From the IMG/VR virus record IMGVR_UViG_3300028581_000059, positions 1 through 50,657 of that record: a stretch of 50,657 nt of DNA. One strand, 5' to 3'. Below the pieces are notes generated by a model that worked only from the letters and a program-made list of their open reading frames with translations, searched no databases and was not told the origin of the DNA. The translations under genes and the position numbers were made by a program. The stretch comes from a virus (Duplodnaviria > Caudoviricetes). Below, one piece after another: positions 1-19,110 of this stretch; positions within the stretch are counted from its first letter, which is position 1, and the number at the start of each line of letters is the position of its first letter.

Positions 1-343
1 CGTTCCCGATAACCTGTATGACACCGCGTGCGAAGCCGTGGGGACAAACTTTGCCGGCGCGACCAGCATGATGGACCCCGACAGCGCAAACGGCAAGATC
101 AATACCCAATACAAGAGATGGACCGTTATCGCGTATCCGCGTCTCGACGACTACGATACGAATAACTGGTTCATGGTGGATTCCAAGAAGATGAAGGAAT
201 ACCTGCTGTGGGTTGATCGTATTGCGCCGGACATCGAGACCACGAAAGACTTCGAGACCAAGATGTTCAAAGAATCGGTTTATAGTCGGTTTGGGTATGG
301 ATTTACTGAATGGAGATGGCTGTATGGAATGTCGGTTTCTTAA
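1..343 (+). CDS. Major capsid protein, C-terminal part (5' part at 50195-50657)
   Basis: Frame is open from base 2 (VPDNLYDTACEAVG...); WFMVDSKKMK and RFGYGFTEWRWLYG resemble the C-terminus of Mu gpT-like HK97-fold capsid proteins. Confidence 0.8.
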   Translation, partial: VPDNLYDTACEAVGTNFAGATSMMDPDSANGKINTQYKRWTVIAYPRLDDYDTNNWFMVDSKKMKEYLLWVDRIAPDIETTKDFETKMFKESVYSRFGYGFTEWRWLYGMSVS

Positions 344-420
344 TAAATTCCGGCATATAGTTCTTTGACAATTTAATGATTTAGACCTTGACAAGAACAA
401 ACCCCTCACGGGGTTAAGGG

Positions 421-530
421 TTTAGGGTTTCCTGAAGGTCCGGCCGGGCTGACGGGAACGCAAGAACAGAAGAACGGAAAGCTGGTTAGAGCTAACCCTC
501 TACCACTTTCCGTTTTTTTGTTGCCCTGAA
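421..530 (+). ncRNA. Structured cis-element, copy 1 (multi-stem, ends in hairpin plus U-tract)
   Basis: tttagggt 421-428 pairs with gccctgaa 523-530; GGGAACGCAAGAA at 454-466; long hairpin then tttttt; same architecture as 17926-18032. Confidence 0.6.
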
Positions 531-612
531 ATGAATGTAGTTTAACCGGGTAAGCGGGTCTAAGTGGCCCGGGCAGCCCTTCGGGGGTGTTCCGTACATG
601 GAGGATTAACAA

Positions 613-1602
613 ATGGGATTAACAAAATTTCCGAATGGAATTCTTGCGACTCCGAATATAGGGGGTTGTGATCGGTCAGAGATGTTTGAAAGTGGGAATA
701 TCTGGTTTGTCGATGGAGATAATGGATCTGCCAGTAATGCTGGCACTTCTCCGGATGTTTCGTTTGCACTTCCGACAACTGCGGTGACTGCGGCTTCAAT
801 GAGGGGGATCGTTTATGTCAGGCCGAGGGATACTGTGGCTGCGGCGCAGACGTATTATGTGGACAACATCACAATTCCGTTGACCAAGTCTCATCTGCAA
901 ATCTTGGGGTGCGCCCCGGATAGTTCGATGCCGTACTTTGGACCTATGATTAAAGCGTCCACTGTCACATCCCCGGTTTTGATAATCAAAAGCGCAGGGT
1001 GCTTGATCGAAGGTCTGGAACTGACCGGAACCGGACAGACGGCTGATGTCACGAGCATCGTGGAAACGCAAAACAACGGGACCACGACCAGGGCCTACGG
1101 AGTAACTATTCGTGGCAATACGTTCAGGAACGCCAAGGGTCATACGATTGGTTTGGGTGCCGCTCTCCACATGGATACGGCCATCTACATGAAGATTCAG
1201 GGGAATCTGTTCCGGGATAATCCGGTCAGTATCGTCTTCCAAACGACCTATGCGGCAGTCAATAGCCTTATCATCCAGAAGAATGTCTTCAGCGGACCAG
1301 TTGCCACCAGGGATGTGGATATTTGGTGTGACGGGTCGGCTGGAACGGGGCTTTTGATTCACGACAATCAATTCCCCGATGCCTTGCCTGCCCTGACAGA
1401 CGGGGCGATCAAGAAGTACATTTCGCTGAATGCCGGTTTATACGGAATGGTCAGCGAGAATAAGTTCGGCTATGCGGCGGGGACGGCGGACGCCTTGTTT
1501 GCCGCAACCGGCACGATTGCCAACATTCCGACGACCGTGATGATGGTAAACAACCAAGTTCAGATGGACGGCGAAGGTGAGACAGGCGTACTCACCGTCT
1601 AA
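613..1602 (+). CDS. Right-handed beta-helix (pectin lyase-like) virion protein
   Basis: GGAGG RBS; WFVDGDNGSASNAGTSPD followed by repeated IxxNxF beta-helix turns. Confidence 0.65.
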   Translation: MGLTKFPNGILATPNIGGCDRSEMFESGNIWFVDGDNGSASNAGTSPDVSFALPTTAVTAASMRGIVYVRPRDTVAAAQTYYVDNITIPLTKSHLQILGCAPDSSMPYFGPMIKASTVTSPVLIIKSAGCLIEGLELTGTGQTADVTSIVETQNNGTTTRAYGVTIRGNTFRNAKGHTIGLGAALHMDTAIYMKIQGNLFRDNPVSIVFQTTYAAVNSLIIQKNVFSGPVATRDVDIWCDGSAGTGLLIHDNQFPDALPALTDGAIKKYISLNAGLYGMVSENKFGYAAGTADALFAATGTIANIPTTVMMVNNQVQMDGEGETGVLTV

Positions 1603-1656
1603 ACCCTTAAAAGCGATGCGGGGCGCTATATCCCCGCACTTTAATAGGATAATACG

Positions 1657-2046
1657 ATGTCCACTTATACATTTAGGAAAAGGTGCGGAACGTGTAAAGG
1701 AACCGGAAAAATTATTCGACCGCCATTTGAGTGGATAGACGAAGAAGGAAACTCCCACGCGTCCACTGAAATAGATTGCCCTAATTGCCAAGGGAACGGA
1801 AGTTACGAATGGGGAACATTTGATAGCACACTCAAGTGTCCAACTTCGCTTGTTCTGGAAAATACCGACTATGATGAGTACACAGCCCTGACCGCCGCCA
1901 AGAAGACGTTTTATGCGCTTTTCATCTCTGCCGGAACTTTAGATATGACCGAGGGATCGAAAGCAAACGCCATGTTTCTGACAACGATCTTTCCACCGGG
2001 TACGGCCAGCAATACGGCAATAACAAGTGCCTTGGCAGGATTATAG
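1657..2046 (+). CDS. Protein with DnaJ-type CxxCxGxG zinc finger
   Basis: CGTCKGTG and CPNCQGNG motifs. Confidence 0.6.
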   Translation: MSTYTFRKRCGTCKGTGKIIRPPFEWIDEEGNSHASTEIDCPNCQGNGSYEWGTFDSTLKCPTSLVLENTDYDEYTALTAAKKTFYALFISAGTLDMTEGSKANAMFLTTIFPPGTASNTAITSALAGL

Positions 2047-2055
2047 GGAGGGGTA

Positions 2056-2238
2056 ATGCTCATTATCATCAAGGGGCGACAACGGCTTGGAAAGACCCGT
2101 TCCGAACTGGAAAAGAATCTTCGCAAGGAATGGGGATCGGCAGCCCTCTCCCCGGAGCAGGTTGATAAGTGCCGGTATCTTGAACGGAAAACGGAAAGAG
2201 CGTGGCAGGACTCGGAAGTGATTGACAGCGTAAAATGA
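2056..2238 (+). CDS. Hypothetical protein
   Basis: GGGAGG RBS; ATGA overlap with the next gene. Confidence 0.5.
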   Translation: MLIIIKGRQRLGKTRSELEKNLRKEWGSAALSPEQVDKCRYLERKTERAWQDSEVIDSVK

Positions 2239-2558
2239 GAACCGACCAGATGAAGTTTTCTGCCTCCTGTGAACTTTTGGAAAAGACCGTGGAGATTGAC
2301 GGGGTGATGCGGGACGTTTACGGAATCGCCTGCATGAGAGCCGAACCAAAGTGGCAGGGGTTGGGCCGCATGATACTCAGGTGGTCTGAGGAAAAGGCAA
2401 GGCGGGATGGGAAATATTGTTGTGTCGGGTTTGCCCTTCCCCATACTTATGAACGGTTCGACAAGAAGGCGGGCTGGTCGCACTGCGGAATGTATCAGAA
2501 CTGGGTAATTACAGCATCCATCCCGGTCGGAAAGATCGTTGTAAATGAACACTGGTAA
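2235..2558 (+). CDS. GNAT-like acetyltransferase (short)
   Basis: VYGIACMRAEPKWQGLGRMIL resembles GNAT motif A; later FDKKAGW resembles motif B. Confidence 0.5.
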   Translation: MRTDQMKFSASCELLEKTVEIDGVMRDVYGIACMRAEPKWQGLGRMILRWSEEKARRDGKYCCVGFALPHTYERFDKKAGWSHCGMYQNWVITASIPVGKIVVNEHW

Positions 2559-3075
2559 GGTATGTATTGTCGGCAAGGGCAAAGGATGGGACGAGGCTCC
2601 TCTGGATTCACTGACATGGGGGATCACACAAATTATCCTGAGACGCCCCGTGGATCGTGTAATCGACATGAACGACTACACCCTGTGGGGGCCGGAAGAG
2701 GCAGAAGAGGCAGTACGGGCGAAAGCCCTGGCGGAAGTGCAGGGGGTCGAATACATCGACCGAAGCAACTATCCCTTAGAGGACGTGATTGACTTCTTCG
2801 GGACGGATTACTTCAGCAATACGGTGGATTATGCAATAGCTCTGGCGCTGTTTGAAATGTTCGATGAGATCCACCTTTACGGCGTGACGATGATGATGGG
2901 ATCAGATTATTATTTTGAGAAGCCCGGCGTCGATTTCTGGTGCGGAATGGCTCTCGGGAGAAGGGCAAAGGTGATCGTGCATGGTCAGTATTCAACCATA
3001 ATGAGGACACAAAACGGTTGCTTATATGGCTATGGTTTGCCGCAAAACTTGGATGAACGATTAAAGAAAGGATGA
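2545..3075 (+). CDS. Rossmann-like transferase (GT29/Maf/MptE-like)
   Basis: VCIVGKGKG start and NTVDYAIALALFEMFDEIHLYGV motif. Confidence 0.5.
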   Translation: MNTGKVCIVGKGKGWDEAPLDSLTWGITQIILRRPVDRVIDMNDYTLWGPEEAEEAVRAKALAEVQGVEYIDRSNYPLEDVIDFFGTDYFSNTVDYAIALALFEMFDEIHLYGVTMMMGSDYYFEKPGVDFWCGMALGRRAKVIVHGQYSTIMRTQNGCLYGYGLPQNLDERLKKG

Positions 3076-3078
3076 TTT

Positions 3079-3621
3079 ATGAGTGAAGCACAATTTTTTT
3101 CGGAAGTGGACATGACCACAAAGGACGGTATCAAGCAGGTCGCCTCAGAGTATCCCGCTTGGTACTACACGACCATGATGGATGATTTGAAAGAGGATAT
3201 TCGGCGGGAAGATTTTGCCCTTGAAAGTGGCGTTGTCCCGGCAGAGCGCAGGCCGCAGATGGTGGACAAGATCAAGAGACTGAAAAAGAAACTTGAGGAC
3301 ATCGAAAAGAGTGTCCCGAAATTGTCCGAGGCGGATGAAAGCAAACTCCTGAAAGTACGGAAGGAACTCGGGAAAGAGATTTCTTCCCTGATGTTCACCC
3401 GTTCGCAGATGCAGAAAGGCCTTGCAGACAGTCATACAGAGGCGCGACGGATGGTTGACCCTTGCATTTCCATCGAAAATGAAGCCGCTGAGGTCGCCCG
3501 AAAGTGCAATATCACTCCCCGAAATGGCAAAATATCTCGTACAGAGGCCGAAAAGATATGGAAGATAACCGGTCGGTACTTTGGGGAAATTAGCAATTCG
3601 GAATCTCTCAGAAAAGACTGA
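3079..3621 (+). CDS. Hypothetical phage protein
   Basis: AAGGA RBS; 180-aa helical ORF in the operon. Confidence 0.6.
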   Translation: MSEAQFFSEVDMTTKDGIKQVASEYPAWYYTTMMDDLKEDIRREDFALESGVVPAERRPQMVDKIKRLKKKLEDIEKSVPKLSEADESKLLKVRKELGKEISSLMFTRSQMQKGLADSHTEARRMVDPCISIENEAAEVARKCNITPRNGKISRTEAEKIWKITGRYFGEISNSESLRKD

Positions 3622-3642
3622 GGGATGTAATGGGTTTAGGTA

Positions 3643-4173
3643 ATGTCAAAAAAAGGATTTAAGCATTCCGAGGAAACAAAAAGGAAGATTTCGGAATCAA
3701 AAAAAGGACAGCCTTCTTCTCTGAAAGGCAGTCATATGTCTGAAGAGATAAAACAGAAACATCGTATTGCTATTACGGGAAAGAAACACTCCGAAGAAGC
3801 AAAGAGAAGGATGTCGATATCAAAAAAGGGCATGCTGAGTGGTGATAAAAACCCAAATTGGAAAGGTGGTGTGTCTAAGGTAGAAGGATACGAAAGTCTT
3901 TGGAAACAAAGGTACAGTTTTCGGAAGAAGAACATTGTTGGGTCATATACACATGGGGAATGGGAACTCTTGAAGGAACAATATGACTATTCCTGTCCAA
4001 GTTGCGGCAGAATGGAACCGGAAATTATATTGGCGGCAGATCATGTTATTCCAATAACCAAAGGTGGTTGTAACAACATTAGCAACATCCAACCGTTGTG
4101 TGGATCATGTAACAGTAGGAAGCATACGAAAATTTTCAGGATTACACCAGAGGGAGAGTTGATGTTGTTTTAA
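3643..4173 (+). CDS. NUMOD3-repeat HNH homing endonuclease
   Basis: HSEETKRKISES repeats; CPSC...DHVIP...GGCNNISNIQPLCGSCN. Confidence 0.9.
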   Translation: MSKKGFKHSEETKRKISESKKGQPSSLKGSHMSEEIKQKHRIAITGKKHSEEAKRRMSISKKGMLSGDKNPNWKGGVSKVEGYESLWKQRYSFRKKNIVGSYTHGEWELLKEQYDYSCPSCGRMEPEIILAADHVIPITKGGCNNISNIQPLCGSCNSRKHTKIFRITPEGELMLF

Positions 4174-4182
4174 GGAGGCACT

Positions 4183-5094
4183 ATGCTCGGCATTGATTTA
4201 TTGAATAAATTGGCACAGTTATGCAACGACGCTCACCCGTCCGGATTTTGGCTTGATCGTAAGACCTCCTTCGATTACCTTTACGAAGCTGCGAAGAACT
4301 TTGCTTCTGACACTCGATCCCTTCATTCCACGCAGACCATAACGACTGTGGCGACACAGGCGAAGTATGCCCTCAATCCTAACTTCCTACGGGTGCTTAC
4401 GGAGGACAGCGATGGGAAAGAGACAATCCCGTATTACAACGGAACATCTACTTCCTGGCTCAGTTTGGAACAGTACCCTACCGTTGTGTATGACGATCTG
4501 GCCGATTCCACTCCTTACAGGTTTTCAATCACAGACAGGCCAAAGGCAACACAGATAACCGGCACGGCGACATCGGCGGGAACAAACGCCGGGGGGGAAT
4601 CTACCCTTACGGATACCGCCGCCGCATTCACCAGCATTGCGGCAGGAGATTCAATCTATGACACCACGGCAAGCCATATCGGTTATGCGTTGTCAGTAAC
4701 TTCCGCCACGGCATTAAAGACGGCCATGTTCGATCTATCCGCCGTGCAGAGTGCTTACGGGGACTGGGCCGATGACGATGCTTATATCATCCAACCCTCC
4801 GCTCGATATGACCTCGTTCTCGACCCACCCCCTGATACATCAGGACATACAATCGCCCTTGAATATGTCTGTTCTCCTACTCCGGTTTATACGGACTATG
4901 GCTCCTACGGATTCGCGTCCGGGTATGAGGAGGCCCTGTTGAAGTACGCCGCATGGCTCTACAAATACAGAGACCTCCAACCCAAATTCGGGGATGCGCT
5001 CTATGGGGCCTATGACATGCAGATGCGGAAGGCAAGAAGCAATAACAGATCGGTCAAGGGAATGAAACGAGTAAGGGCAAACTTTACGAGGTAA
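4183..5094 (+). CDS. Head-tail adaptor / tail tubular A-like protein with inserted beta domain
   Basis: Position; LDPPPD...YEEALLKYAAW C-terminus typical of adaptor proteins. Confidence 0.6.
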   Translation: MLGIDLLNKLAQLCNDAHPSGFWLDRKTSFDYLYEAAKNFASDTRSLHSTQTITTVATQAKYALNPNFLRVLTEDSDGKETIPYYNGTSTSWLSLEQYPTVVYDDLADSTPYRFSITDRPKATQITGTATSAGTNAGGESTLTDTAAAFTSIAAGDSIYDTTASHIGYALSVTSATALKTAMFDLSAVQSAYGDWADDDAYIIQPSARYDLVLDPPPDTSGHTIALEYVCSPTPVYTDYGSYGFASGYEEALLKYAAWLYKYRDLQPKFGDALYGAYDMQMRKARSNNRSVKGMKRVRANFTR

Positions 5095-5097
5095 AAA

Positions 5098-7371
5098 GTG
5101 GCGCGAAAGAAGTTCACGACGCAAAGAACCATTGCCGATATGGAGCCGATTCCTTTCCGGGGCGGTTGCAATACCTATCTCCCGGCGATCACGTTACCTT
5201 CCGGCAAGTTCTCCATGATCCAGAATATGAGGGCGACCCATCCGGGATTCAAGGCGCGGACGGGTATGCTGAAACTGCACTCCACGGCGCACACTGCCAC
5301 AAAGGTTCTTTCCGCTTTTCACTTCAGCAAAGGCAAGCGATCCGAGAAACACTTTCTCGCGCAGTTTTCGGATGGGGATTTATACGAAGCCACGACACAG
5401 CCGCCCGGCGTCACCGCCGGAGCATTCGGAACCCTGAAATACTCCGGGGATAGCTCGGCTATCCCTGCCGCGTATTCAGTTATGGATGACAGCCTGCTTT
5501 ATTCAGACGGGGTAGATCAGCACCAGCTCTTCCCCGGCGATGCGAACCCGGTGACCAGTTTCCATGTGTATTCAAGCGCCGTGGCCCTTCCGTTGATTCC
5601 GGCTTTAGGAAACGACTACACGATGGAGGTATTGGATACCGCAACCTCGACCTATGCGGTTATTTCGGCCCTGGGGACAAATGCGGCGGATACCATTCTG
5701 ATATGCTGCCCCACCGTGCCGTCAAAACTCAATATCGTGATGAGTACGAGTGTCAATGCGGTTGTCTCTGCCTTGACCATTAAGTACATGAAAAGCGGAT
5801 CGCCCGATGCCTTTACTACGGTAGGGGCATCCCTCTCGGATGGTACGGCGACGGGCGGCGCCACGTTTGCTAAAAGCGGCACGATTTCATGGGACGCCTT
5901 GACCGATATGGTTCCCTCGTTCATGTTCGGGATAAGCGGATTCTGGCTTGCCCTTACCGTGTCTGTGGCTCTCAGCGCAACGGTGAGGATCAATCAAGTG
6001 ACTTACGGGGGCGCGTTCCAACCCCTTCAGAATGTATGGGATGGGGATTCAATCCCGGCATTGGAGGCGCGGTTTTATATCCATGCTTCCGTGGCGTATT
6101 TCACCTATTACGGTGCGTCGATTGATGTATCATCTATGGTTGCCACCAACGATGCAATTTATTTCAACACCATTGATAACATTAGAGCCATTTACATTGA
6201 CGCGACATCCACCCCGTCAACAACGGCATCCGTGACCCCGCACCTTTATTACTGGAATGGATCGGTATTCACAACGGAAGTGTCCAATCTGGTGGATAAC
6301 ACCGTCGGAATGACAAAACCCGGATGGATGACCTTCGATAAGGTTTCAGCGGAAAAGACGATGTTCCAGACATCGTATTATTCCTACTGGTGGAAACTAA
6401 CGATTACGGGTGGGAATTTCCCGGCAGATACCCGAATCGGAATCTATGTCATGCCGTATTATGACATCAATGATATTGCGACTACGGGAAGATGTAATTG
6501 CGCGTGGAAGAACCGGGCCGTCTATGGGACCGATAGGGATCAGTATCTTTTGGTTTCCGCCCTGCATCAACCGATGGTCCTGAATGGAAGCGACTTCGGA
6601 ACCCTCGATCCCGGAGATGGTAGGGCAAACCTACCCGTCTGTATGCGACAGTTCAAGAACGAATTGATGGTATGGCAGGAGGAAAAGGGAACGGATGGCG
6701 GGTGCTTTACCCTGTTTGAAGGCTATAACCCCGACACATACGGCAAACTGGTTCTATCCACAAAACTCGGAGCACTAAACGCAAAGAGCGCGGTAGTTGT
6801 TGAGGGGGTAGAGGTTTCAACCGAGACGGGGATTGAGGTTAGAACCGTTGTCTATGTCCTCAGTCATTACGGGGTTTATATGTCGGACGGTAGATTCTGC
6901 ACCATGATTTCCGACGACATCCGGGACAGGTTCGACACCACGAATGCGAATTGTATCCGAAGAGGATACGAATCAGATATGTGGATTGCCTATGATTCCG
7001 TATTCAATGTTCTTAGGCTTGGCCTCGTGTGCGGGACCGGGGAAGTTCCGAACGTGTTTCCCGTGTATGACATAACGGACAGCGCGTGGATGTTCGACAC
7101 GGGACTTGGACTTTCATCCATGTGCGAGGTTGAATCCGGCAGCGGAACCGCCCCGGTAGTTTTGTGCGGCGGGGGATCGGCGGACGGACTTGTGCATCTT
7201 CTGAATAGCGGGACGACAGATAATGGCGTGGCGATTGATTCTTATGCAACGGTGGAACTCGACGGGGCCGGACTGGTTATCAATCTAAGAGAATTGATTC
7301 TTGCAAAGGATGGGGATGTCACTCTTACCCCGTATCAGGACGGGACTGTTCAGACGGCAAAGGTCATATAA
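5098..7371 (+). CDS. Tail tubular B / P22 gp10-like nozzle protein
   Basis: 757 aa, beta-rich; PFRGGCNT...NMR N-terminus; follows the adaptor gene. Confidence 0.65.
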   Translation: MARKKFTTQRTIADMEPIPFRGGCNTYLPAITLPSGKFSMIQNMRATHPGFKARTGMLKLHSTAHTATKVLSAFHFSKGKRSEKHFLAQFSDGDLYEATTQPPGVTAGAFGTLKYSGDSSAIPAAYSVMDDSLLYSDGVDQHQLFPGDANPVTSFHVYSSAVALPLIPALGNDYTMEVLDTATSTYAVISALGTNAADTILICCPTVPSKLNIVMSTSVNAVVSALTIKYMKSGSPDAFTTVGASLSDGTATGGATFAKSGTISWDALTDMVPSFMFGISGFWLALTVSVALSATVRINQVTYGGAFQPLQNVWDGDSIPALEARFYIHASVAYFTYYGASIDVSSMVATNDAIYFNTIDNIRAIYIDATSTPSTTASVTPHLYYWNGSVFTTEVSNLVDNTVGMTKPGWMTFDKVSAEKTMFQTSYYSYWWKLTITGGNFPADTRIGIYVMPYYDINDIATTGRCNCAWKNRAVYGTDRDQYLLVSALHQPMVLNGSDFGTLDPGDGRANLPVCMRQFKNELMVWQEEKGTDGGCFTLFEGYNPDTYGKLVLSTKLGALNAKSAVVVEGVEVSTETGIEVRTVVYVLSHYGVYMSDGRFCTMISDDIRDRFDTTNANCIRRGYESDMWIAYDSVFNVLRLGLVCGTGEVPNVFPVYDITDSAWMFDTGLGLSSMCEVESGSGTAPVVLCGGGSADGLVHLLNSGTTDNGVAIDSYATVELDGAGLVINLRELILAKDGDVTLTPYQDGTVQTAKVI

Positions 7372-7589
7372 TGGATCGAGTGCGACTCAGTTTGAACGTA
7401 ACGGGGAAACATGGATCTCTGAAGTTTGCCGGAACGGATATTAGGGAAATGAGAGTGCTCATAAACAACATCGTGGAGAAGAGTCCCTATGTTCCCATGA
7501 ATCAGATCGGCGAGCATATCAGCGTGAAACTGGCCGGGGCAAGATTGGATTATGTTTGTTTCAATATCGAAACAATGGAAGCGCGATAA
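7371..7589 (+). CDS. Small protein translationally coupled to the nozzle gene
   Basis: TAATG overlap; internal repeat LNVTGKHGSLKF / MNQIGEHISVKL. Confidence 0.55.
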   Translation: MDRVRLSLNVTGKHGSLKFAGTDIREMRVLINNIVEKSPYVPMNQIGEHISVKLAGARLDYVCFNIETMEAR

Positions 7590-7595
7590 GAGACG

Positions 7596-8828
7596 ATGAA
7601 AGATTATTTCCGTAAACCGAATATAGCGAAAAGTTATTCAGACATGTTTGAAAGAACATCTGAAGCGCAGTTACAGTACGAACACGTCTATAAACATTCG
7701 GAATTCAAAAAACCATACGAGTCTGGTAGTTATGACGATATGGAACTTATGTCAACACCTTCTTTTAATTTTCCCCGCAATTCACCACAGGGATGGGATT
7801 ATCCCGGTGATATAGTTACCACGACTCCATGGACAGTACAAGGGACAGTACCGGGAACAGTAGGGAAACATACGTCTTTCGGACCGGAGATACCTTTTCC
7901 CGAAGAGCCGCATCCGCCGGTTCCGGTAGAAGATCCCTTTCCCGAAAATCCTCATCCGCCGAATCCGCCGAATCCGCCGAAGCCAAAGGTGCAGGTCTTT
8001 TATTGTTGGACAAACGACTGTTTCATGCCCGGCAAATGCACCAATGTTCCGTTTCATTGCACTTTCACGATTACGGATATTGAAAAAGGATTCTTTACAT
8101 TAAGCGCAGAGGCCCGTGGAACCAGAACATTTCCAGTCCAGGGGAACATTCGTATCTGTTCTACGAAAGATGAAACCGGACCTCTTGACTTCACTATTTG
8201 GGGAACAAAAGACCCCGATTTGTATAATCTCGGAGGGTTGAATCCGTACCATGAAGGCAAACAGGATACGGACCTACATATTCCCGGTTGTGATTACACT
8301 AATTGTTTAGGTGATGATGGCGATCCAGTCTTGATGCACTATACCACCAAACAAATGGCAGTAAACGATACACAGACACTTTATGTTGAAAATGCCAATA
8401 GTGCGGGAGATTACATGTGGGAGTGCAATATAGGCACTATTGGTCCTACCGGGTCAACAACAACATATACCGCCCCCGCGACCAATCCCGGTTGTACAAC
8501 CGCTGTAATTACACTAAAAGATAAGGGTGATGGCGGCGGGGGAAGTACCTGTTCCACGCTTAATATTGCTGTAAGTGCGAATGTTTCTGGAAGTGCTATA
8601 CAGCGTTGTTGTGATGTTGGCGGAGTTAATCATTGTAATATCTTTGGAACCTGTCTGGGTGTTTGGGGATCAACAAATGCTTACTGTTTAACAAATTGCG
8701 GTGCAGATTCCGGTACTGGTTCAGCAAACCCTTGCGGTGCTTTCGGCAACCCTCCAAACGGTGTAATAACAGACATACGAGATGCCGCAATGATAGCAGC
8801 GGGTTGTTGTCCTTATCAGTTATTGTAG
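7596..8828 (+). CDS. Pro-rich, Cys-rich putative virion protein
   Basis: PPN linker; 19 Cys in the C-terminal two-thirds. Confidence 0.6.
   Translation: MKDYFRKPNIAKSYSDMFERTSEAQLQYEHVYKHSEFKKPYESGSYDDMELMSTPSFNFPRNSPQGWDYPGDIVTTTPWTVQGTVPGTVGKHTSFGPEIPFPEEPHPPVPVEDPFPENPHPPNPPNPPKPKVQVFYCWTNDCFMPGKCTNVPFHCTFTITDIEKGFFTLSAEARGTRTFPVQGNIRICSTKDETGPLDFTIWGTKDPDLYNLGGLNPYHEGKQDTDLHIPGCDYTNCLGDDGDPVLMHYTTKQMAVNDTQTLYVENANSAGDYMWECNIGTIGPTGSTTTYTAPATNPGCTTAVITLKDKGDGGGGSTCSTLNIAVSANVSGSAIQRCCDVGGVNHCNIFGTCLGVWGSTNAYCLTNCGADSGTGSANPCGAFGNPPNGVITDIRDAAMIAAGCCPYQLL
7954..7980 (+). repeat. 9-bp tandem repeat (atccgccga)x3
   Basis: Read directly; encodes the PPNPPNPPK linker. Confidence 0.85.
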
Positions 8829-8835
8829 GGTATTT

Positions 8836-9300
8836 ATGAAAGAACTGACTGAAGAAGAGTTTAGCGACCGGATGATGGCAATGCAGCGGTCCAGGGCAAT
8901 CTTTGTCGAAACCGGACTGACGAAGAATATTACCCATGCCTTTGCCGCATATCAGACGATCTTCGCAGAACGGGAACGAGAGATATTTCTGGCAAATGTA
9001 TCCGGGAGTAAGCCGAGAACAATCATGGATAAATACTACCGTCCCAAATGTGTTGAGTGCGGTGCAGATATGGCGTTTCGGCAGCTCCCCGAAAACGACG
9101 AGGGAACAAAAATTCAGCTCGTCTGCATGAATGATAATTGCGACACGGTACTCAACAGCACGAACGACCTTAAATGGTGGATGGATAACTTGCGGATAAA
9201 AGGAAACGAGGCGGCTAATGGATTTAGTGGAACATTTAAGGGGGTTGACGAAATCAAGCAAGAAAGACGAGATCCCCGGCGCAGTAGAGGCGTATCTTGA
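8836..9300 (+). CDS. Hypothetical zinc-ribbon protein
   Basis: CVECG...CMNDNC. Confidence 0.55.
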   Translation: MKELTEEEFSDRMMAMQRSRAIFVETGLTKNITHAFAAYQTIFAEREREIFLANVSGSKPRTIMDKYYRPKCVECGADMAFRQLPENDEGTKIQLVCMNDNCDTVLNSTNDLKWWMDNLRIKGNEAANGFSGTFKGVDEIKQERRDPRRSRGVS

Positions 9301-9427
9301 TGAACTGTGTCCTGCGTGCGGAAAGAAGATGAAACTCTACCGCCCATGTTGCGGTTCATCGGAAGGGTATAAAGGATGCCCGTGTGGTTATAAGGTGGTA
9401 GTCGAGGGAGACAAAAGGAGAAAATAA
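9218..9427 (+). CDS. Small Cys-rich protein
   Basis: GAGG RBS; CPACG, CCG, CPCG; coupled to the next ORF. Confidence 0.5.
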   Translation: MDLVEHLRGLTKSSKKDEIPGAVEAYLDELCPACGKKMKLYRPCCGSSEGYKGCPCGYKVVVEGDKRRK

Positions 9428-10020
9428 TGCGTCTTTGCACGGTAGAGGGATGTGGAAGAAAACATTCTGCAAAAGGTCAATGCCGGATGCACTATAAACG
9501 AATAAAGAGACCACGGAAAACGTGGTATCACCCAAACCGGATTTTTGTGCGTGACGGATATGCAGAGATCGAATTGCTTCATAAAGATTCAACGATATCG
9601 TTTGCGCAAATAGATATAGAGGACGTTGAAAAGGTAAGTGCGTACCGATGGGTAATGGCACACGGGTACGTCAAAAAGAATCGCCCCAGTGAGTATCTAC
9701 ACCAATTCCTCATTGGGAAGCAGACCGGTTATGTAAATGACCATATTAACAGAGACCCGTTGGATAATAGAAAATCTAATCTGAGATTTCTGAAACACAG
9801 TGAAAACTTGTGCAATAGGGGGTTACCGCAAAACAATACTTCTGGTTATAAGGGAGTATCGTTTTCAAATAAACGGGGGAAGTGGTGTTCATTTATTCAT
9901 TTGAAAAATATTGCGGAACGGTACGTTGGAACATTCAATAATCCCGTAGATGCGGCAGTTGCATATAACAATGCGATGAAAAAATATGTGGGAGATGTGG
10001 CGTGGTTGAACCAAGCGTAA
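9427..10020 (+). CDS. HNH homing endonuclease with AP2 domain
   Basis: DHINRDPLDNRKSNLR; NNTSGYKGV...AAVAYN. Confidence 0.9.
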   Translation: MRLCTVEGCGRKHSAKGQCRMHYKRIKRPRKTWYHPNRIFVRDGYAEIELLHKDSTISFAQIDIEDVEKVSAYRWVMAHGYVKKNRPSEYLHQFLIGKQTGYVNDHINRDPLDNRKSNLRFLKHSENLCNRGLPQNNTSGYKGVSFSNKRGKWCSFIHLKNIAERYVGTFNNPVDAAVAYNNAMKKYVGDVAWLNQA

Positions 10021-10349
10021 TCAACATTATTCTATTGGCGATAGCGGTTGAAGCCGTTGTCGAATTGATAAAAACTGCCGCGCCGATTCAGGGGTCAAAA
10101 GAATGGATAATCAGACACACTCCGTTTCTGTACTCGGAAAGACAACAGACCCACCTGCTGTCATGCCCCACGTGTACCAGTTTTTGGGTTTCGATTTTGG
10201 CGGTGATCGGATATTTGTTTATGGATACAACGGTGGCGGTCTGTATTCTGGTTGGACTTGTGGCGCATCGATCGTCGAACTATTTTCATATAATGTACAG
10301 CATTCTTGCGGATAAACAGAGAGATTTGCGGATTTCAAGGAGGAAGTGA
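10002..10349 (+). CDS. Membrane protein (DUF1360-like)
   Basis: Hydrophobic segments; LLSCPTCTSFW. Confidence 0.55.
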   Translation: MVEPSVINIILLAIAVEAVVELIKTAAPIQGSKEWIIRHTPFLYSERQQTHLLSCPTCTSFWVSILAVIGYLFMDTTVAVCILVGLVAHRSSNYFHIMYSILADKQRDLRISRRK

Positions 10350-11398
10350 TGGGCGGATATAACAGATATGGAGAATGGGATGAGTATTTGGGGAATGATC
10401 CCGGTTATGATCCCGAAGGTTCTTCCGGTCACGAACCGACAAATACCTCTTATGATCCCGGTGACTGGTGGAAGTATTCCCCCGCCGATCCGAATTCGGC
10501 ACCTGCTTCTTTTGGCTCTCCCGCACTTGATAGCGGACTTTATGGGGCTTGGGTTACTCCCGAACCCCCTCCTGCGGTAAAACCTCAAGGGCAGAGGCTG
10601 GCTGGCGGCACGGGAAGCAGGTCCAGCACTTCTGTTCCTTCCGTTCCTGCTGTTGCCCCTACGGGGAAATCCGCCGGAGCAGGACAGGCCCTGAATGAAC
10701 CTGTCTATACTTATAATTCTACCGAACCGACCACCACGACGACTACAAGAGATCCAACAACCACGACATCCGTGACCAGTCCCACCACTTCCACCACGAG
10801 TGGTTCGACGACAAATATTTCCCAACGGATACCCACAATGGCCCTTCCACAATACGAGGAGGCGGCAGCTCTGAGTCTTCCCGCGCGTGACGCTTTACGG
10901 GAACGATATCTCGCACAAGAGGAACAGGCACTTGGAGTAGGGGAATGGAGGCAGAGTCTTCGGAAGGGTCTCAATAAACTCATGTCTGAGGGTAACTTCG
11001 CGACTCGCGGGGCGCAGATGAGGGAACTGTTCGCCGGGGCCGGTCAGGGCCTCGGGAGAATACTTCAAGCCGCGAGTAGTGCTGCAAGGGCAATCTACAA
11101 CGCAGAATACGGGATACTTGTCACTCAGGCGGTTGAGAATTACAGGGGTCAGTTATCGGAACACTTGGCTAAATTCAACTCCGAAGTCGGCATGTATCTC
11201 GGGACAATGGATACTTCCACAACGGGAACGAGTACCCAAAATACATATACATCCGGGAGTAACACTACGCAGGTTACGAGCGGGGGAACAACCAAACAGG
11301 TTACGAGCGGCGGCTCTACCTCTGGATATCGGGGGAATCAACCATACGACCCCGCACTTAATAGACCGGGCGGTTACGGGAGTTATGGGGTTTTATAG
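10346..11398 (+). CDS. Putative internal virion/ejection protein
   Basis: Thr/Gly-rich low complexity plus helical core; position. Confidence 0.5.
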   Translation: MMGGYNRYGEWDEYLGNDPGYDPEGSSGHEPTNTSYDPGDWWKYSPADPNSAPASFGSPALDSGLYGAWVTPEPPPAVKPQGQRLAGGTGSRSSTSVPSVPAVAPTGKSAGAGQALNEPVYTYNSTEPTTTTTTRDPTTTTSVTSPTTSTTSGSTTNISQRIPTMALPQYEEAAALSLPARDALRERYLAQEEQALGVGEWRQSLRKGLNKLMSEGNFATRGAQMRELFAGAGQGLGRILQAASSAARAIYNAEYGILVTQAVENYRGQLSEHLAKFNSEVGMYLGTMDTSTTGTSTQNTYTSGSNTTQVTSGGTTKQVTSGGSTSGYRGNQPYDPALNRPGGYGSYGVL

Positions 11399-11404
11399 GA
11401 GGTT

Positions 11405-12643
11405 ATGATGGGCGTACTTCGCGCACAAGCAGATTACGAATCAATGTATCCGACGGACCAGGCGGTTGCAGAGGATAGTCAGAGCCTAATCCAACCCGAT
11501 AGACCTCCCGCCCTGATTACGAATATTCCCGGTCGCAGACAGGAGGCAATCGACACGGGCGGGGGATATATCGACCCCGATACTCAGGAGCCGATAAGTT
11601 ATATGGGTGGGGATACTGCGGGACACGAACCCCCCGCGCTCGGGAGACCCGAAGATCAACCGCAATCAGCCATTGATAAATTGACAGATACAAGGGGGAC
11701 TGCCGACACAGACGCCCTTAATCTTATCAACTTTGGGAAAAAGAGTCCAGCGGATTTGGATAGGGAACGACAGCAAAACATAGACAAGATGCTCAAAAAA
11801 GGCATGAAACTTACTCCCGAAGAACTTACTAAGGTTTCTGAGGGAATATACAGGGTTTCTCTTACGATTCCGGCAAAGGAACAAGCGCAAGCAATGATGG
11901 ACAAGGATGCCGTCGGGAACTTTCGGCAAATGTTTAACTACAATATCAAAGACGCCACGGATGCAGATTTGGCGAGATTCCGGGAAGCACAGAAAAAGAA
12001 CCTGAAAACATTTGAAGATAATTTCACACAGAGACAAAAACTGGCACTTGCTTATTACAAGGAGCATACGCCCGATGCACTGAAAGCCCTTCAAATGGAA
12101 AATGTACAACTTGGTATTTTGAAAAAGAAGGTGGATTTGGCGAAACCAGAGAAACCGGAAAAGGTCACTCCCCGAAACGCAAACTATATGACACCGGCGG
12201 GTAAAATAGTAATCGTGAATATGAACGATCCCAATGCACAATCCATTATTGATACCAATGGATTGAAGCCATATAAAGAACCGGCCAAACCGGAGAAGCC
12301 GGAATACAAACCCGGACAGGCCATGAAAAGGATGTCCGCTATCAGTTCTGCTATTTCAAGACTGAAAAGCGGTAGCCCTATTGATGCACTTCTTGTGGCG
12401 CAAATCCCCGAATATGCTGGCCTGATGGCGTCAAATGATCCTGCGGCAAAACAGCAGGCAATCGATCAGCTTACAACGGAACTTGAATATGTGAAGGGGT
12501 TTGCTCCTGCAACTACCAAGGAAACGCCTCCGGCCGCTCCGGTTGATACTGAAAGGCAAAACGCAGATGCAGCAATAAAGGCGGGTGTGAATCCGGCTAA
12601 GGTTAAAGAGATGTATAAAAAGAGGACGGGCAAGGATTATTAA
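11405..12643 (+). CDS. Putative internal virion/ejection protein
   Basis: GGAGG RBS; helical; C-terminal AIKAGVNPAKVK; position. Confidence 0.5.
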   Translation: MMGVLRAQADYESMYPTDQAVAEDSQSLIQPDRPPALITNIPGRRQEAIDTGGGYIDPDTQEPISYMGGDTAGHEPPALGRPEDQPQSAIDKLTDTRGTADTDALNLINFGKKSPADLDRERQQNIDKMLKKGMKLTPEELTKVSEGIYRVSLTIPAKEQAQAMMDKDAVGNFRQMFNYNIKDATDADLARFREAQKKNLKTFEDNFTQRQKLALAYYKEHTPDALKALQMENVQLGILKKKVDLAKPEKPEKVTPRNANYMTPAGKIVIVNMNDPNAQSIIDTNGLKPYKEPAKPEKPEYKPGQAMKRMSAISSAISRLKSGSPIDALLVAQIPEYAGLMASNDPAAKQQAIDQLTTELEYVKGFAPATTKETPPAAPVDTERQNADAAIKAGVNPAKVKEMYKKRTGKDY

Positions 12644-15600
12644 TGGAAGCAAATCCTTACATGGACATTGCCGATACGGAAACCACTAATCCGTATATGC
12701 AGACCGAGGAAGCAAATCCCTACATGGATGTTGGGATAACCCCGGAGTCCTATGCTGCGATGGCCGCGCCGGTTCATTCTATACGGAAAAAGGAAACTGT
12801 CACGCCAGAGGTTACGGCGAAACCCGGCGAAGCAACGACAGCGGAGAAAGTAGCGGATTTCTTCACAGGGCATTTCCCGGCGAATAAAGACATTCCCGAA
12901 GTGCAGAACAACATTATTCGGGATATGTTGACTGGCAAAGACATTCCCGCGTACATGAAACGGCCATCCGTGCAAATCAATGTTCCCGAATCCGGGGAGA
13001 TTTCGTTTCTTCAAGACCCGGTTACGGCAGCATCGTTTGGGGCCGTGGCAGGAGTGTTGAAAGCCGCACCTCTTGTTGGGAAACTGGCAACAGCGGCAAG
13101 AGAAGCGGCGGCATGGATGACCGGGGGAGCAACAGACATTCCTAAACTTGCAAAAGCAGGTGCGGAGGGTGTGTCAAAGATTATATCCATCCCCGCCGAA
13201 GCCGAAAGAATGGCGATCTTGAGGGCAAAGGGAATACCCTACACAAAACCAGTAGGCGCAGTCATCCCGACAACGGGACCAGTTTCCGCGTCAATTACGT
13301 CTCCTGCGCTCAGGGTGATTGAGAATAAACGGTTGGCAGAACTACCAGGGGGAGAAGAGATCGTTAAACCTGGGGCAACGTCGCAAGGAAAACTGACGGC
13401 CCCGGAGGAAACCAAACTTCTTAAAGGTCCGCCCGAAGTAAAGGAAACCCCAAACGTCGGCCCGTCAGAATCATCGGCGGCTTTTGTCGATAAGGGCCAA
13501 TTCCCCGTCCAGAGAATCAAGGTTGAGGATATAAAGGTTGATCCTGACAAGTTTCAGTTCAAGAAGAATGTCGATAAACGTGGGGTACAGAAAGACCTCG
13601 AAGGCGAATGGAATGAATTGGCCGCTGGTGTCACGGTTGGATGGCAAGACAAAAAAGGTGAAATCTTTATCGCTAACGGACATCATCGATTAGCGGCTGC
13701 GAAAAAGCAGGGAATCGAATCCCTGAATATGCAGATTCTAAAAGAGACGGATGGGTTTACCGTTAAAGACGCCCGCAAGATGGCTGCTGAATCCAATATT
13801 CTTGAAGGGAAAGGAACTATCTTCGACCATGCCGCTTTCTTCCGTGAAGGCGGGTACTCCCCGGAAATAGCTACTCAACGGGGGATAAAGGGTCGTGGTT
13901 TTAACATCGGCACCAAGGCTACCGATAACGCATACGCTCAATTTACAAGCGGAAATATCTCCCCGGAAAACGTCGAAGCCATTGTTAATATTGCGCCGAA
14001 GAACGAGAACCTTCAGATTGTCGGTATTAAATATGCCTTAGATAAACCCAATGCAAAACCCGATGAAGTGGCAAACTTTATGAAGGCCATGTCGGTAAAC
14101 CGTCCCGCAAGTACGGCAAGTCAGCAGGGGGATATGTTTTCCGATGGATTAGATGATGCTATCCGGGATGCAGAGGAAATGGGAAAACTTGCCAGTGGGC
14201 ATATCAAATCCCTTGATAATGATCTGTCGGCATTGCGATCCCTGAAATGGTCTGACGTTCTTGAAAAGAAATTCGGAATCAAACGTGGAGACGCAACCGG
14301 AGCCGAGAAGATCATCCAAGACCTGAAGGTGGAAAAAGAACTATGGGAAAGTTGGCATACTAACCCGGATCTGGTTAAACAATTACGCCAGGAACAGGCA
14401 CAGGGACAGCAAGGTTTCAAGTGGCAAGGACAAGCGGCGGACACCGGCGGGTATGCAGACCGGGGCGGATATTCGCCAGCGCACGCGAATGTCGTTGAAC
14501 TCCCGGAACTCGTTGACATAGCAAAAGAACTCGGCGGAGGGCAATATCCCCGTATCCTTGAAAAACTGAGAGCAGGAGGGATACAACGTGACGAGATATT
14601 AGGGATATTCAAACCCGTTGGCAAGGGTTCTATTGATCTAAAGGCCGACATCTTCAAAGACCCCATAGGTGCATCAAAGACCCTATCCCATGAAATAGGT
14701 CACTGGATTGACTATCTCCCGGATAAGACCATGAAACGGGGAAACATCCTCGGACGTATCGGATCACTCAAGAAGTATTTCGATAGTTTCCTTGAGGAAT
14801 ACCCCAATGCTCCCCTCAAAGTCCTAACGGACCCGGAAAAAGAACTGATCCGGCAAGAGGCGAAACGACAGGCGGCAATGGGGAAGGCGGGAACCGCACC
14901 TGCCGTAACCCCGGCTGATATTCTTGCCGTTTGGAATAATGTTGTGATCGTGAATCCTAAGTTATCTGAATTTGTCGCCAAGATGTCTGACAAGGAAAAG
15001 GTACAGTTGGCGCGGGATGCCATGAAGGGAAGTATCCCCGAATGGTTCAAATTTAATCCGTCTGCGGCTCCCGGCAATGTTCGGAAGATATTTGAAGAAC
15101 TACTGGCGGCAGAGGTCGAACGGCGTCACCTGTGGAAAAAAGAAGATATTATGGGTGAGTTGAAAACGCTTACCCAACAATGGAAACCTTTCGATGTAAA
15201 CGAGAGTGCAAAGTTCACGTCTTACCGTCATTCGTCTGAGGAACTTTACGCCGATGCTTTCAGCGTTCTGTTGAATGAACCGACCCTGTTGGAACAAACG
15301 GCTCCGAAGTTTAGGCAAGCGTTCTTCAATTTCCTTGAACGGAAACCGCAAGTCAAACAGTTATACGAGGATACCCAGTCTCTTATATCCAGCGGCGGTG
15401 TGTTTGAAAAGCGGATGGGTGCCATTGACGAGGCGTTCACAAAGGGCGAAGAAATCCGCAAGGGTATGTCGGAAACCAAGCAACCCCTTGATATATTCAA
15501 ATGGTTGAAACATGAATTGGTCGATGTCAATACCGGACTGATTCAGAAAAAGAAGTTGGCCGAAAAAGCCGGACGAAAGTTTCTCCCGGAAGAAAACCCC

Positions 15601-17922: not shown

Positions 17923-17925
17923 CAA

Positions 17926-18032
17926 TCAGGGCTTCCCGGCGGACTGATCATCCAAGGGGGACGCAAGAAAGATTAAGGGCGGTCGTGTGGGACCACACTC
18001 TCACAGGATGACGCCCTTTTTCTTTGCCCTGA
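17926..18032 (+). ncRNA. Structured cis-element, copy 2
   Basis: tcagggc pairs with gccctga; GGGGACGCAAGAA at 17957-17969; aagggcg...cgccctt hairpin then ttttctt. Confidence 0.6.
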
Positions 18033-18068
18033 CAGACAGAGGGGCCATACCCCCACAGGAGGCACAAA

Positions 18069-18779
18069 ATGGGATCAGCGAAAAGTTACGAGAAATTAAC
18101 GACGATCACAACGGCAACTGCACTGAGCGCGACGGTTTATGACCCGCCTGCGGTTTACCCGGAATCATTAACCAACGGCACCTTGGATTCCGGCACTTCA
18201 TGGACTGAGACGGGCGACTTTGCTCTCGCTGCCAACACAGCCGTTTACACTGATTCGACCAATGCTGGAACTCTCGATCAGGCAGTTACGGCTCTTGCGA
18301 GAACGGGTAGAAGCGGGGCAACGTATGAATTCACCTATACTACATCAACCGCATCGTTGGTAGGGACCGCAACGATAACCACAGCTTTTGCTGCTTCCGC
18401 AGTTTCGCTTAGTGGTCTTGGCACTGCCGGGACGTATAAGGTCCGGTTCGTGGCAGCCAACATCCCCGGAGCCTTCTCCATCTCGGTAGCCAGTTCTTCG
18501 GGTGCCGTAACCTTTGATGCACTTTCGTTGGTCGAACTGGTTGAACCCCAGGATGTCATGCAGGTCAAAAGGGCAGTCATTACCGTTGAAACGGCGGCAA
18601 TCAACTTCTGCGTTGACGGCACGACCCCCACGATCACGTCCGGGACGTATGGGGGCCACATGCTTAACGTGGGTGACGTTCTAACCCTGAATGACATTTC
18701 GGAGATCAGGAAATTCCGGTGCATCAATGCCGTCGCTTCGAGTGGTGCTGTTGTTAAAGTCACCTACTCGTTCGCATAG
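18069..18779 (+). CDS. Putative tail/virion protein with carbohydrate-binding-like insert
   Basis: AGGAGG RBS; SLTNGTLD...FDALSL jelly-roll-like segment; VDGTTPT motif. Confidence 0.55.
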   Translation: MGSAKSYEKLTTITTATALSATVYDPPAVYPESLTNGTLDSGTSWTETGDFALAANTAVYTDSTNAGTLDQAVTALARTGRSGATYEFTYTTSTASLVGTATITTAFAASAVSLSGLGTAGTYKVRFVAANIPGAFSISVASSSGAVTFDALSLVELVEPQDVMQVKRAVITVETAAINFCVDGTTPTITSGTYGGHMLNVGDVLTLNDISEIRKFRCINAVASSGAVVKVTYSFA

Positions 18780-18788
18780 GAGGAAGCC

Positions 18789-19097: not shown

Positions 19098-19110
19098 AAG
19101 GAGGAGAAAG

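Follow-up and report, generated by a model that had tools for sequence, protein, structure and literature searches.

What does a folded element of about 105 nucleotides (nt), which contains no gene, do at two sites in the genome of one phage? The question arises from IMG/VR virus record IMGVR_UViG_3300028581_000059 (Duplodnaviria; Caudoviricetes). The window analyzed here is this complete virus record of 50,657 bases, in which the capsid gene spans the record's end and start. The phage is podovirus-like, with an SU10-type portal and adaptor, and it is temperate, as indicated by an integrase gene at 24073-25200 on the minus strand. For this element, which we call the cassette, we established the fold and its covariation, the strand that carries it, where it lies with respect to genes, and that it is optional and exchangeable. 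As to its function, we favor, tentatively and with somewhat less than even confidence, a tunable terminator and insulator in phage late operons, in which decoy helices would set how readily the terminator closes. A preliminary description of the locus had proposed a conserved module, perhaps a terminator/antiterminator switch, placed after the capsid gene. Of that interpretation, the structured and covarying module, the lack of an Rfam match, and the competing repeat stood, whereas the definition by the capsid gene and the classical switch did not.

The window carries two copies of one fold

Copy 1 of the cassette lies at 422-529 and copy 2 at 17926-18032, both on the plus strand. All the features listed in the preliminary description were found where it had placed them. 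The closing stem is formed by AGGGT (424-428) and GCCCTGA (523-529) in copy 1 and by AGGGC (17928-17932) and GCCCTGA (18026-18032) in copy 2. The palindromes are CGGCCG (441-446) and TGATCA (17945-17950), the 6-2-6 inverted repeats are GGTTAG-AG-CTAACC (484-497) and GTGTGG-GA-CCACAC (17985-17998), and the T-runs begin at 513 and 18017. The shared linker, ACGCAAGAA, is located at 458-466 and 17961-17969, its sole two exact matches within the window. An alignment of the two copies showed the conserved blocks YAGGGYTTCC, GGGRACGCAAGAA, and TTTTT..TTGCCCTGA.

Both copies adopted the same branched structure on the plus strand, with folding energies of -54.0 kcal/mol (z = -6.8) for copy 1 and -50.4 kcal/mol (z = -5.3) for copy 2, and in neither case did any of 200 shuffles equal the native value. 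The minus-strand folds were weaker (-36.4 and -43.7 kcal/mol, respectively). A covariance model with 35 distinct relatives, R1, scored 92.5 and 83.8 bits at the two sites, and the next match in the window scored 11.2 bits. Since the folds beat their shuffles and the model scores drop from 83.8 to 11.2 bits, the window holds exactly two copies that are not due to chance. DNA contigs of four sequencing runs over positions 1-19000 represented the same phage at low depth and were uninformative on the element.

The cassette defines a family without an Rfam match

The family comprises more than 150 distinct members on phage and metagenome contigs (below, L-numbers are element loci from contig scans and G-numbers are virus records). 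A first, broad two-anchor pattern yielded 9 true relatives among at least 112 loci in viral contigs, the remainder being mostly chance matches. With a stricter pattern, all 38 loci in viral contigs were true. The same pattern found 19 loci in genome_contigs, 4 of them true and all on small or phage-like contigs of metagenome-assembled genomes (MAGs), for which MAG host labels are unreliable, and 100 loci in metagenome contigs, with 26 flagged as non-members. One of these 26, L263, is a true member that is cut off at the contig end. The combined scans gave 81 distinct elements, with 70 distinct sequences of the first hairpin (P2) and 78 of the second (P3), and relaxed scans added more. Model R1 detected one or two copies per record in ten other virus records. 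An unrelated intergenic stretch that is highly conserved in gut Clostridia (Flavonifractor, Pseudoflavonifractor, and others) also matched the pattern by chance, at L155, L157, L159, L167, L170, and about 15 metagenome loci (e.g., L202 and L210); it carries its own terminator-like hairpin ahead of a ribosome-binding site.

The author of the preliminary description could not match the element to a known RNA family, and neither could we. Rfam 15 gave no match over the whole window at gathering thresholds. At E values up to 10, the region 340-620 had only sub-threshold chance matches, of which mir-5890 scored highest with 21.5 bits (threshold, 54), and 12 other members had no match at E values up to 0.1. 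A blastn search of copy 2 against 50,697 GenBank phage records found no match at E values up to 1. A tRNA or tmRNA identity was rejected, as ARAGORN detected no such gene in the window. Our literature search returned nothing specific on conserved intergenic stem-loops before major tail genes. In a published set of 10,006 candidate structured RNAs, drawn from IMG/VR and from RNA viruses, 1241 candidates have predicted terminators, and some motifs lie no more than 25 nt ahead of genes, for example that of a major capsid protein; the paper gives such motifs no function (PMC10690425). This set resembles our data in its IMG/VR source, its terminator-bearing candidates, and its motifs upstream of capsid-type genes, and the cassette may already be among the 2023 candidates of PMC10690425.

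A covarying, strand-specific junction

The fold of about 105 nt consists of a closing helix (P1), the P2 hairpin, a C-GNAA-G turn, and the long P3 hairpin. P1 is made up of GGGY:GCCC and up to three outer pairs, mostly UCA:UGA with the variants UUA:UGA and UUA:UAA; its GGG:CCC core was invariant in all 86 distinct members. In copy 1, its 5' strand is TTAGGGT (422-428), paired in the minimum-energy fold with the 3' strand GCCCTGA (523-529). In copy 2, TCAGGGC (17926-17932) begins 4 nt past the stop codon of an open reading frame (ORF) of 1759 amino acids (aa), and its 3' strand is GCCCTGA (18026-18032).

P2 adjoins P1 without a linker (429-458 in copy 1 and 17933-17961 in copy 2, both according to the folds) and consists of two stems, the outer of 4-6 bp and the inner of 3-5 bp, which an internal loop separates, and of a terminal loop of 6-7 nt. 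The terminal loop contains the palindrome GGCC in copy 1; in copy 2 it is CTGATCA, with the palindrome GATC within TGATCA. The palindromic tip that had been seen in the two copies turned out to be characteristic of the family: of the 115 distinct P2 hairpins, 95 have a self-complementary tetranucleotide in the loop, compared with about 42 expected from shuffled loops (GGCC in 65, GAUC in 26, UCGA in 2, and UGCA in 2).

The junction turn is CGCAAG in both copies (459-464 and 17962-17967). When its four middle bases were left free, distinct members had GCAA (31), GUAA (5), GAAA (3), or AAAA (2), and in one case, U-GCAA-A, both closing bases were changed. GNRA loops dock on tandem C:G pairs, and by analogy a docking of the C-GNAA-G turn on the invariant GGG:CCC of P1 would fit. 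In a degenerate copy of about 60 bits, L177:1501-1613, the junction is altered to CGAUAG and P1 is reduced to 4 bp.

P3 spans 465-522 in copy 1 and 17968-18025 in copy 2, as delimited by the folds and by a scan for hairpins followed by T-runs. It is a single long hairpin in all 78 variants, in which an A-rich 5' foot pairs with the U-tract and is followed by 7-8 G+C-rich pairs; the tip is a 9-bp stem with a 6-nt loop in 63 of the 78.

The preliminary description had read the pairing kept between the two copies as covariation, and the homologs bear this out, revealing a conserved, strand-specific module with true covariation. In a MAFFT alignment of 35 distinct members, which was not fitted to any structure, 86.3% of the cells paired, compared with 71.7% in shuffles. 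The covariation score was 0.470 versus 0.205 in shuffles, none of 500 shuffles reached 0.470, and slid controls gave 0.09-0.14. In the model-based alignment A4 (95 matches, 86 distinct), which is biased towards the structure because it was fitted to the model, 92.7% paired versus 70.9% in shuffles, the score was 0.611 versus 0.200, and 28 of 39 pairs had changes on both sides. G.U pairs were frequent in the P3 stem, as at A4 columns 97/131, with 41 GC and 40 GU. The many G.U pairs in this stem and the weaker minus-strand folds indicate that the fold is specific to one strand.

The long hairpin has the marks of an intrinsic terminator

A stable, G+C-rich hairpin followed directly by a U-tract is what identifies an intrinsic terminator, and P3 has both of these features. 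A T-run of at least 4 lies between the stem and GCCC in all 37 members obtained with a pattern that had no T requirement, and a T-run also abuts the stem in all 9 true members of the first unbiased scan. In the window, the scan for hairpins with T-runs ranked as the strongest plus-strand sites the two P3 hairpins (-17.4 and -21.5 kcal/mol) and an operon-end hairpin at 24077 (-19.5 kcal/mol). A stock promoter/terminator scan of positions 1-20000 stayed at the level of chance, and its overly strict stem rules made it miss P3. A conserved promoter upstream of the cassette was rejected, as no conserved -35 or -10 element occurs within 40 nt upstream; the 5' flank is A/T-rich, with AMAA at -4 to -1. 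The conserved 3' block was also rejected as a promoter, since it fits neither the sigma-70 nor the sigma-54 pattern.

Like intrinsic terminators, P3 has a G+C-rich foot followed at once by 5-8 U, an A-rich 5' side, and a gene in the same orientation. Unlike them, it belongs to a conserved junction that can be closed only with sequence past the U-tract, it has two further conserved helices that compete at its tip, and it sits before rather than after highly expressed genes. The cassette could nevertheless be a plain intrinsic terminator on a conserved recombination linker, with P1, P2, and the competing helices having no regulatory role and the perfect X:X' palindrome at the P3 tip (described below) being left by quasi-palindrome (template-switch) mutation in DNA instead of being selected as an RNA helix. 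The invariant terminator marks speak for this account, as do the location of the element at module boundaries between non-homologous genes, the reassortment of its halves at the conserved linker, and the existence of filled and empty sites (see below). So does the pairing at the tip, where the competing X:X' repeat described below is almost all Watson-Crick and the final stem tolerates G.U, which is the pattern that DNA-templated correction would yield. On the other hand, P2 covaries strongly, with 8 of its 9 pairs changed on both sides in A4. The C-GNAA-G form is kept through changes at N and through one double change of the closing bases, which points to selection on an RNA fold beyond the terminator. 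The competing helices B and C are maintained although 25 or more X words occur, 68 of 69 contexts have the same orientation, and a conserved promoter half is lacking. We regard this account as unlikely, while leaving it a real share of the probability.

A precedent for such a linker is provided by the PeSL cassettes of T4-like phages, intergenic promoter/terminator stem-loop motifs that serve as points of genetic exchange (PMC4122927). They share with the present cassette the small, conserved intergenic stem-loop, its occurrence in otherwise unrelated sequences, and its location at exchange points (PMC4122927). They differ in the early promoter, since our cassette has no conserved promoter half. 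Its carriers are also not T4-like, having SU10-type portal and adaptor genes (the window phage) or HK97-type head genes (others), and it is located in the structural module instead of hyperplastic early regions and has an elaborate covarying RNA fold.

Three exclusive helices compete for the tip of P3

Three helices that exclude one another, each supported by covariation, are encoded in this tip; we call them A, B, and C. The 6-nt loop of P3, X', is Watson-Crick complementary to X, a stretch of 6-7 nt in its own 5' arm only 2 bases away, in all 78 variants, and there are at least 25 different X words. In copy 1, the A-rich 5' foot (465-473) is followed by W (480-483), X (484-489), the spacer (490-491), the X' loop (492-497), X'' (498-505), and the T-run (513-522). 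The corresponding parts of copy 2 are W (GGTC, 17981-17984), X (17985-17990), the spacer (17991-17992), the X' loop (17993-17998), X'' (17999-18005), and the T-run (18017-18025).

The 6-2-6 repeat, which the preliminary description had noted as a competitor of the hairpin tip, is thus helix B (X:X'), and it is itself conserved by covariation. In A4, where the loop columns were not fitted as pairs, 92.7% of helix B was paired versus 60.6% in shuffles, with a covariation score of 0.724 versus 0.201, slid controls of at most 0.083, and changes on both sides in 5 of 6 pairs. Helix C pairs W, the four bases before X, with the spacer and the first two bases of X'. All 4 positions were paired in 58 of 71 variants and, with a 1-nt shift, in 9 more, and other shifts gave none; on A4, 82.6% paired versus 67.0% in shuffles, with a score of 0.389 versus 0.160. 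Helices C, B, and A have a common 5' arm, and the apex shifts 4 nt 3'-ward per step. The same G residues have nearly always C as the partner in helix B and about half the time U in helix A, the full hairpin.

In stepwise folds, helix C was the minimum-energy intermediate for both window copies and L118, and helix A prevailed only after the 3' arm was present. Stepwise folds with 12 nt hidden in the polymerase were uninformative because the 3' arm of any terminator stays hidden until the U-tract. Metastable folding of this kind is encoded in the hok mRNA of plasmid R1, in which, too, exclusive helices succeed one another from 5' to 3' and the earlier ones form first during synthesis. The putative cascade in the cassette differs in that it ends in a terminator hairpin and has no antisense partner or toxin gene.

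A classical switch between terminator and antiterminator does not fit these results, because the G+C-rich base of the stem is untouched by the competing helices and the full hairpin has an advantage of about 9 kcal/mol. A riboswitch or attenuator was rejected likewise, as no alternative pairing removes the terminator stem and the competition from helices B and C is confined to the tip. The competing helices may still have a kinetic effect.

A few members showed unusual tips. L304:95-219 has an additional small hairpin, CGAGAGAAATCTCG, between X' and X'' and keeps X', which indicates that the P3 tip tolerates insertions. In the degenerate copy L295:1501-1604 (= L369, about 60 bits), the 3' arm of P3 is mostly gone, and X-spacer-X' and the U-tract are kept. 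L126 and L138 have the same P2 as L152 and near-identical flanks, and their P3 tips are wholly different (X words ATTGGG versus GTATGG), with a concerted change across X, X', and X''. This difference suggests cassette exchange or very fast concerted change; in the comparison of L126 with L152, it is also what a plain terminator on a recombination linker would lead one to expect.

The two loops raise another possibility, that the terminated product is a small RNA acting in trans, which would kiss nascent transcripts of the same cassette and block closure of the terminator. Finished molecules would expose X' and the self-complementary P2 loop, nascent ones in state C would expose X, and the product would thereby drive read-through and time the expression of the major head and tail genes, each copy being addressed through its own X word. 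This reading would account for the palindromic P2 loop and for the X and X' loops. The palindromic core of the P2 loop cannot pair within a loop of 6-7 nt; the covarying complementarity of X' to X and the presentation of X as a 6-nt loop in state C would suit such contacts as well. The two copies differ in both the X word and the P2 loop core in all 5 two-copy records; given two main loop types, however, this has a chance of about 0.08, and divergence of copies is also expected from the avoidance of recombinational deletion. Kissing through 4 bp would be weak, no conserved promoter lies upstream, and the account is inferential throughout. We consider it improbable. The packaging RNA of phi29 (Rfam RF00044) combines a three-way junction with loops able to pair between molecules. 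The cassette shares the three-way junction and the potentially intermolecular loops, whereas it has no Rfam match, is intercistronic, occurs in 1-2 copies, contains a terminator, and belongs to phages unrelated to phi29.

The cassette precedes virion genes

The constant feature across the family is the downstream gene, often that of a major head or tail protein, and not the capsid gene upstream by which the preliminary description had defined the element. In 68 of 69 contexts, a ribosome-binding site, a start codon, and an ORF of at least 50 codons followed within 150 nt downstream; the reverse-orientation control gave 11 of 69. The gap to the start codon was usually 14-40 nt (median, 29 nt; quartiles, 25-37), in a spacer that is rich in A, with C second, and the median distance from the upstream stop codon to P1 was 7 nt. 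Upstream genes were mixed, encoding portal, head protease, homing endonuclease, glycosyltransferase-like, and tail terminator proteins and small ORFs; in L122, an HNH gene lies directly upstream of the element.

We scanned 38 downstream genes. Major tail protein families were matched by 7 of them, major head families by 6 (a seventh, at L126, was left out at a distance of 909 nt), head protease families by 3, and scaffold, tail fibre, minor tail, and adaptor families by one each. A further 8, without a match, were ORFs whose length of 132-149 aa equals that of major tail proteins, and the rest had no assignment. In G002, G008, and G009, which have two copies each, one copy stands directly before the major head gene and the other before an ORF of 143-148 aa that is of major-tail size and has no family match. 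The cassette often stands just before the most heavily used virion genes in many unrelated phages.

The cassette could also be an antitermination target or effector, with the P1 5' strand, P2, and the turn binding RNA polymerase or a factor that suppresses the terminator of the cassette itself and further ones, and with the late genes locked until the polymerase is modified. A possible parallel is the put RNAs of phage HK022, two-hairpin RNAs that make the polymerase terminator-resistant. Genomes have about two copies each, the terminator is directly preceded by a conserved hairpin and a linear motif, and the window phage is temperate; terminators before costly genes would block leaky expression in the lysogen. 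The carrier phages, however, share no detectable protein, the sites are deep in structural operons and not behind early promoters, and P1 needs sequence from past the terminator. We consider this account very improbable.

The cassette is optional and exchanged between phages

The genes that flank the element are unrelated between phages. A tblastn search of the window's flanking proteins against 43 other element loci returned nothing below E = 0.1, only 4 ORFs of the window had any BLAST relative in five other element-bearing records, and blastp among the six records found no protein common to all six. The two hairpins reassort: among 3240 pairs of elements, 15 had P2 at least 90% identical with P3 below 65%, 11 had the reverse, and only 6 were at least 90% identical in both. 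The P2 of copy 2, for example, is 96% identical to those of L116, L122, L200, and L213, whose P3 hairpins differ, and the P3 of copy 1 is 89% identical to that of L116.

Homologues of the major tail protein of L116 allowed a comparison of corresponding sites. The element is present at 7 of 12 such loci. It is absent from L467, with a protein 91% identical, and from L470, where the stop and start codons are about 24 nt apart at these empty sites. In L468 (protein 86% identical), the site retains only CAGGGC-TAAA-GCCCTC, a hairpin of 16 nt. The insertion begins and ends exactly where P1 does. Given the unrelated flanking genes, the reassortment of P2 and P3, and the filled and empty sites in relatives, the cassette is optional and is passed between unrelated phages, a property absent from the preliminary description.

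An insertion with such exact limits may be read as a selfish, non-autonomous mobile DNA of the MITE, REP, or PATE kind, with a transposase supplied in trans that reads the TCAGGGY...RCCCTGA ends and the hairpins, perhaps in single-stranded DNA, and with a secondary role for the RNA fold. The 7-nt inverted-repeat ends mark the insertion limits in an A-rich target, the element occurs in unrelated phages, orthologous sites are filled or empty, and the remnant at L468 could be a footprint. Yet only 4 nt of the terminal repeat (GGGY:GCCC) are invariant, about one third of the members lack the outer pairs, and the hairpin sequences differ between copies in one genome, which would leave a sequence-specific transposase little to read. 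Records hold 1-2 copies and not many near-identical ones, the nearly uniform sense orientation is at odds with insertion in either direction, and the G.U pairs tie the fold to one strand. Between flanks that are both A-runs, no clear target duplication is readable, although one of 1-3 nt would not show, and the six records share no protein. We consider a mobile DNA of this type improbable.

Morons of lambdoid phages are optional insertions between two genes, and bcr1 of the Bacillus cereus group is a MITE-like repeat reported to keep an RNA fold through compensatory changes. The cassette resembles them in being present in one phage and missing in a close relative and, in the case of bcr1, in the preserved fold; unlike them, it has no ORF or promoter, occurs in 1-2 copies per genome in one orientation, and has copies that differ from each other.

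A tunable terminator and insulator as a tentative explanation

The explanation that we tentatively favor joins the terminator, the junction, and the competing helices. The cassette of about 105 nt would be transcribed within late (virion-gene) operons, with an intrinsic terminator, P3 and its U-tract, as the core. P3 sits in a junction with P2 and the C-GNAA-G turn, closed by P1, whose 3' strand follows just past the U-tract. RNA polymerase would stop at P3 in a fraction of its passes. While the RNA is being made, the G-rich 5' arm of P3 would pair with nearer partners, first in helix C and then in helix B, before its final partner is available, and these decoy helices, by holding the arm during synthesis, would set how often the terminator closes in time. 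In read-through transcripts, P1 would close to form a compact and very stable junction (about -50 kcal/mol), which would insulate the upstream cistron from what precedes the next gene, an A/C-rich unstructured spacer and a strong ribosome-binding site, and may protect the 5' side of that gene against nucleases. The cassette is non-essential and is gained, lost, and recombined between unrelated phages like a gene-less "moron."

Several points weigh against this explanation. Helix A, the full hairpin, beats a forced helix B by a mean of 9.0 kcal/mol (range, 5.0-18.9), and the 7-8 G+C-rich pairs of the foot can form in the presence of helix B or C, so that any effect of the decoy helices could be kinetic only. 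Whole-context minimum-energy folds showed helix B at some length in only 10 of 81 members. When the 3' strand of P1 was left free in the search, about one third of the 70 distinct members recovered had the outer three pairs of P1 unpaired. The empty sites in close relatives show that the downstream gene can do without the element, and a terminator directly before the most-needed genes is counter-intuitive unless read-through is high or the polymerase is antiterminated. The search patterns, moreover, fixed ACGCAAGAA, the T-run, and GCCCTGA, each of which was relaxed singly, so the invariance of these motifs was tested one at a time; for the same reason, members that diverge further, among them L177 and L295 (both about 60 bits), are under-sampled.

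The boldest reading makes the cassette a self-addressed RNA timer, with strand exchange from C to B to A and a terminated product that kisses nascent copies and switches them to read-through. We give it little probability. If it were true, the output of the major head and tail genes would rise as the terminated product accumulates, and the hypervariable X words would prevent cross-talk between copies and between co-infecting phages.

Neighborhoods of the two copies

Copy 1 follows the capsid gene and copy 2 the 1759-aa ORF (12643-17922). The gene downstream of copy 1 (613-1602, plus strand) encodes 329 aa without a family match and is preceded by GGAGG at 601-605; its start is 83 nt from P1, against the family median of 29 nt. 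The gene downstream of copy 2 (18069-18779, plus strand), with AGGAGG before it and a gap of 36 nt to P1, encodes 236 aa, also without a family match, and has no relatives in viral contigs.

The setting of copy 1 is atypical on the upstream side as well, as the capsid stop codon is 78 nt before P1. This upstream gap (344-421) contains two TTGACA hexamers (364-369 and 389-394) and a small hairpin, AACCCCTCACGGGGTT, at 400-415, and the 83 nt between P1 and the start codon (530-612) contain a further G+C-rich hairpin region at about 545-590. The regions 344-421 and 530-612 may hold a promoter or a second structure.

The 1759-aa ORF had only weak PHROG matches (the phrog_21 "portal" region, residues 289-448), and Pfam gave none; the product may be an internal or ejection protein of this SU10-like phage. 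The window also carries four free-standing homing-endonuclease-like genes, at 3643-4173, 9427-10020, and 21200-21958 on the plus strand and at 38976-39443 on the minus strand. Their types are HNH with NUMOD3, HNH_3, HNH_3 with AP2, and LAGLIDADG, and three of the four are within the structural operon. A 120-aa protein (37873-38235, plus strand) has a sigma-70 region-4-like motif and is a possible late regulator or small terminase.

Significance of the cassette

How tailed phages produce virion proteins in widely different amounts from one long late transcript is poorly understood beyond a few model phages. The cassette is a compact and portable module with a well-supported fold, and its three exclusive, covarying helices at the tip of a terminator are an unusual feature. 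Co-transcriptional folding and tunable termination could be examined in vitro with it as a concrete system, and it is a candidate part for synthetic operons. With its spread across unrelated phages, it adds an example of a gene-less RNA to the units that phages exchange.

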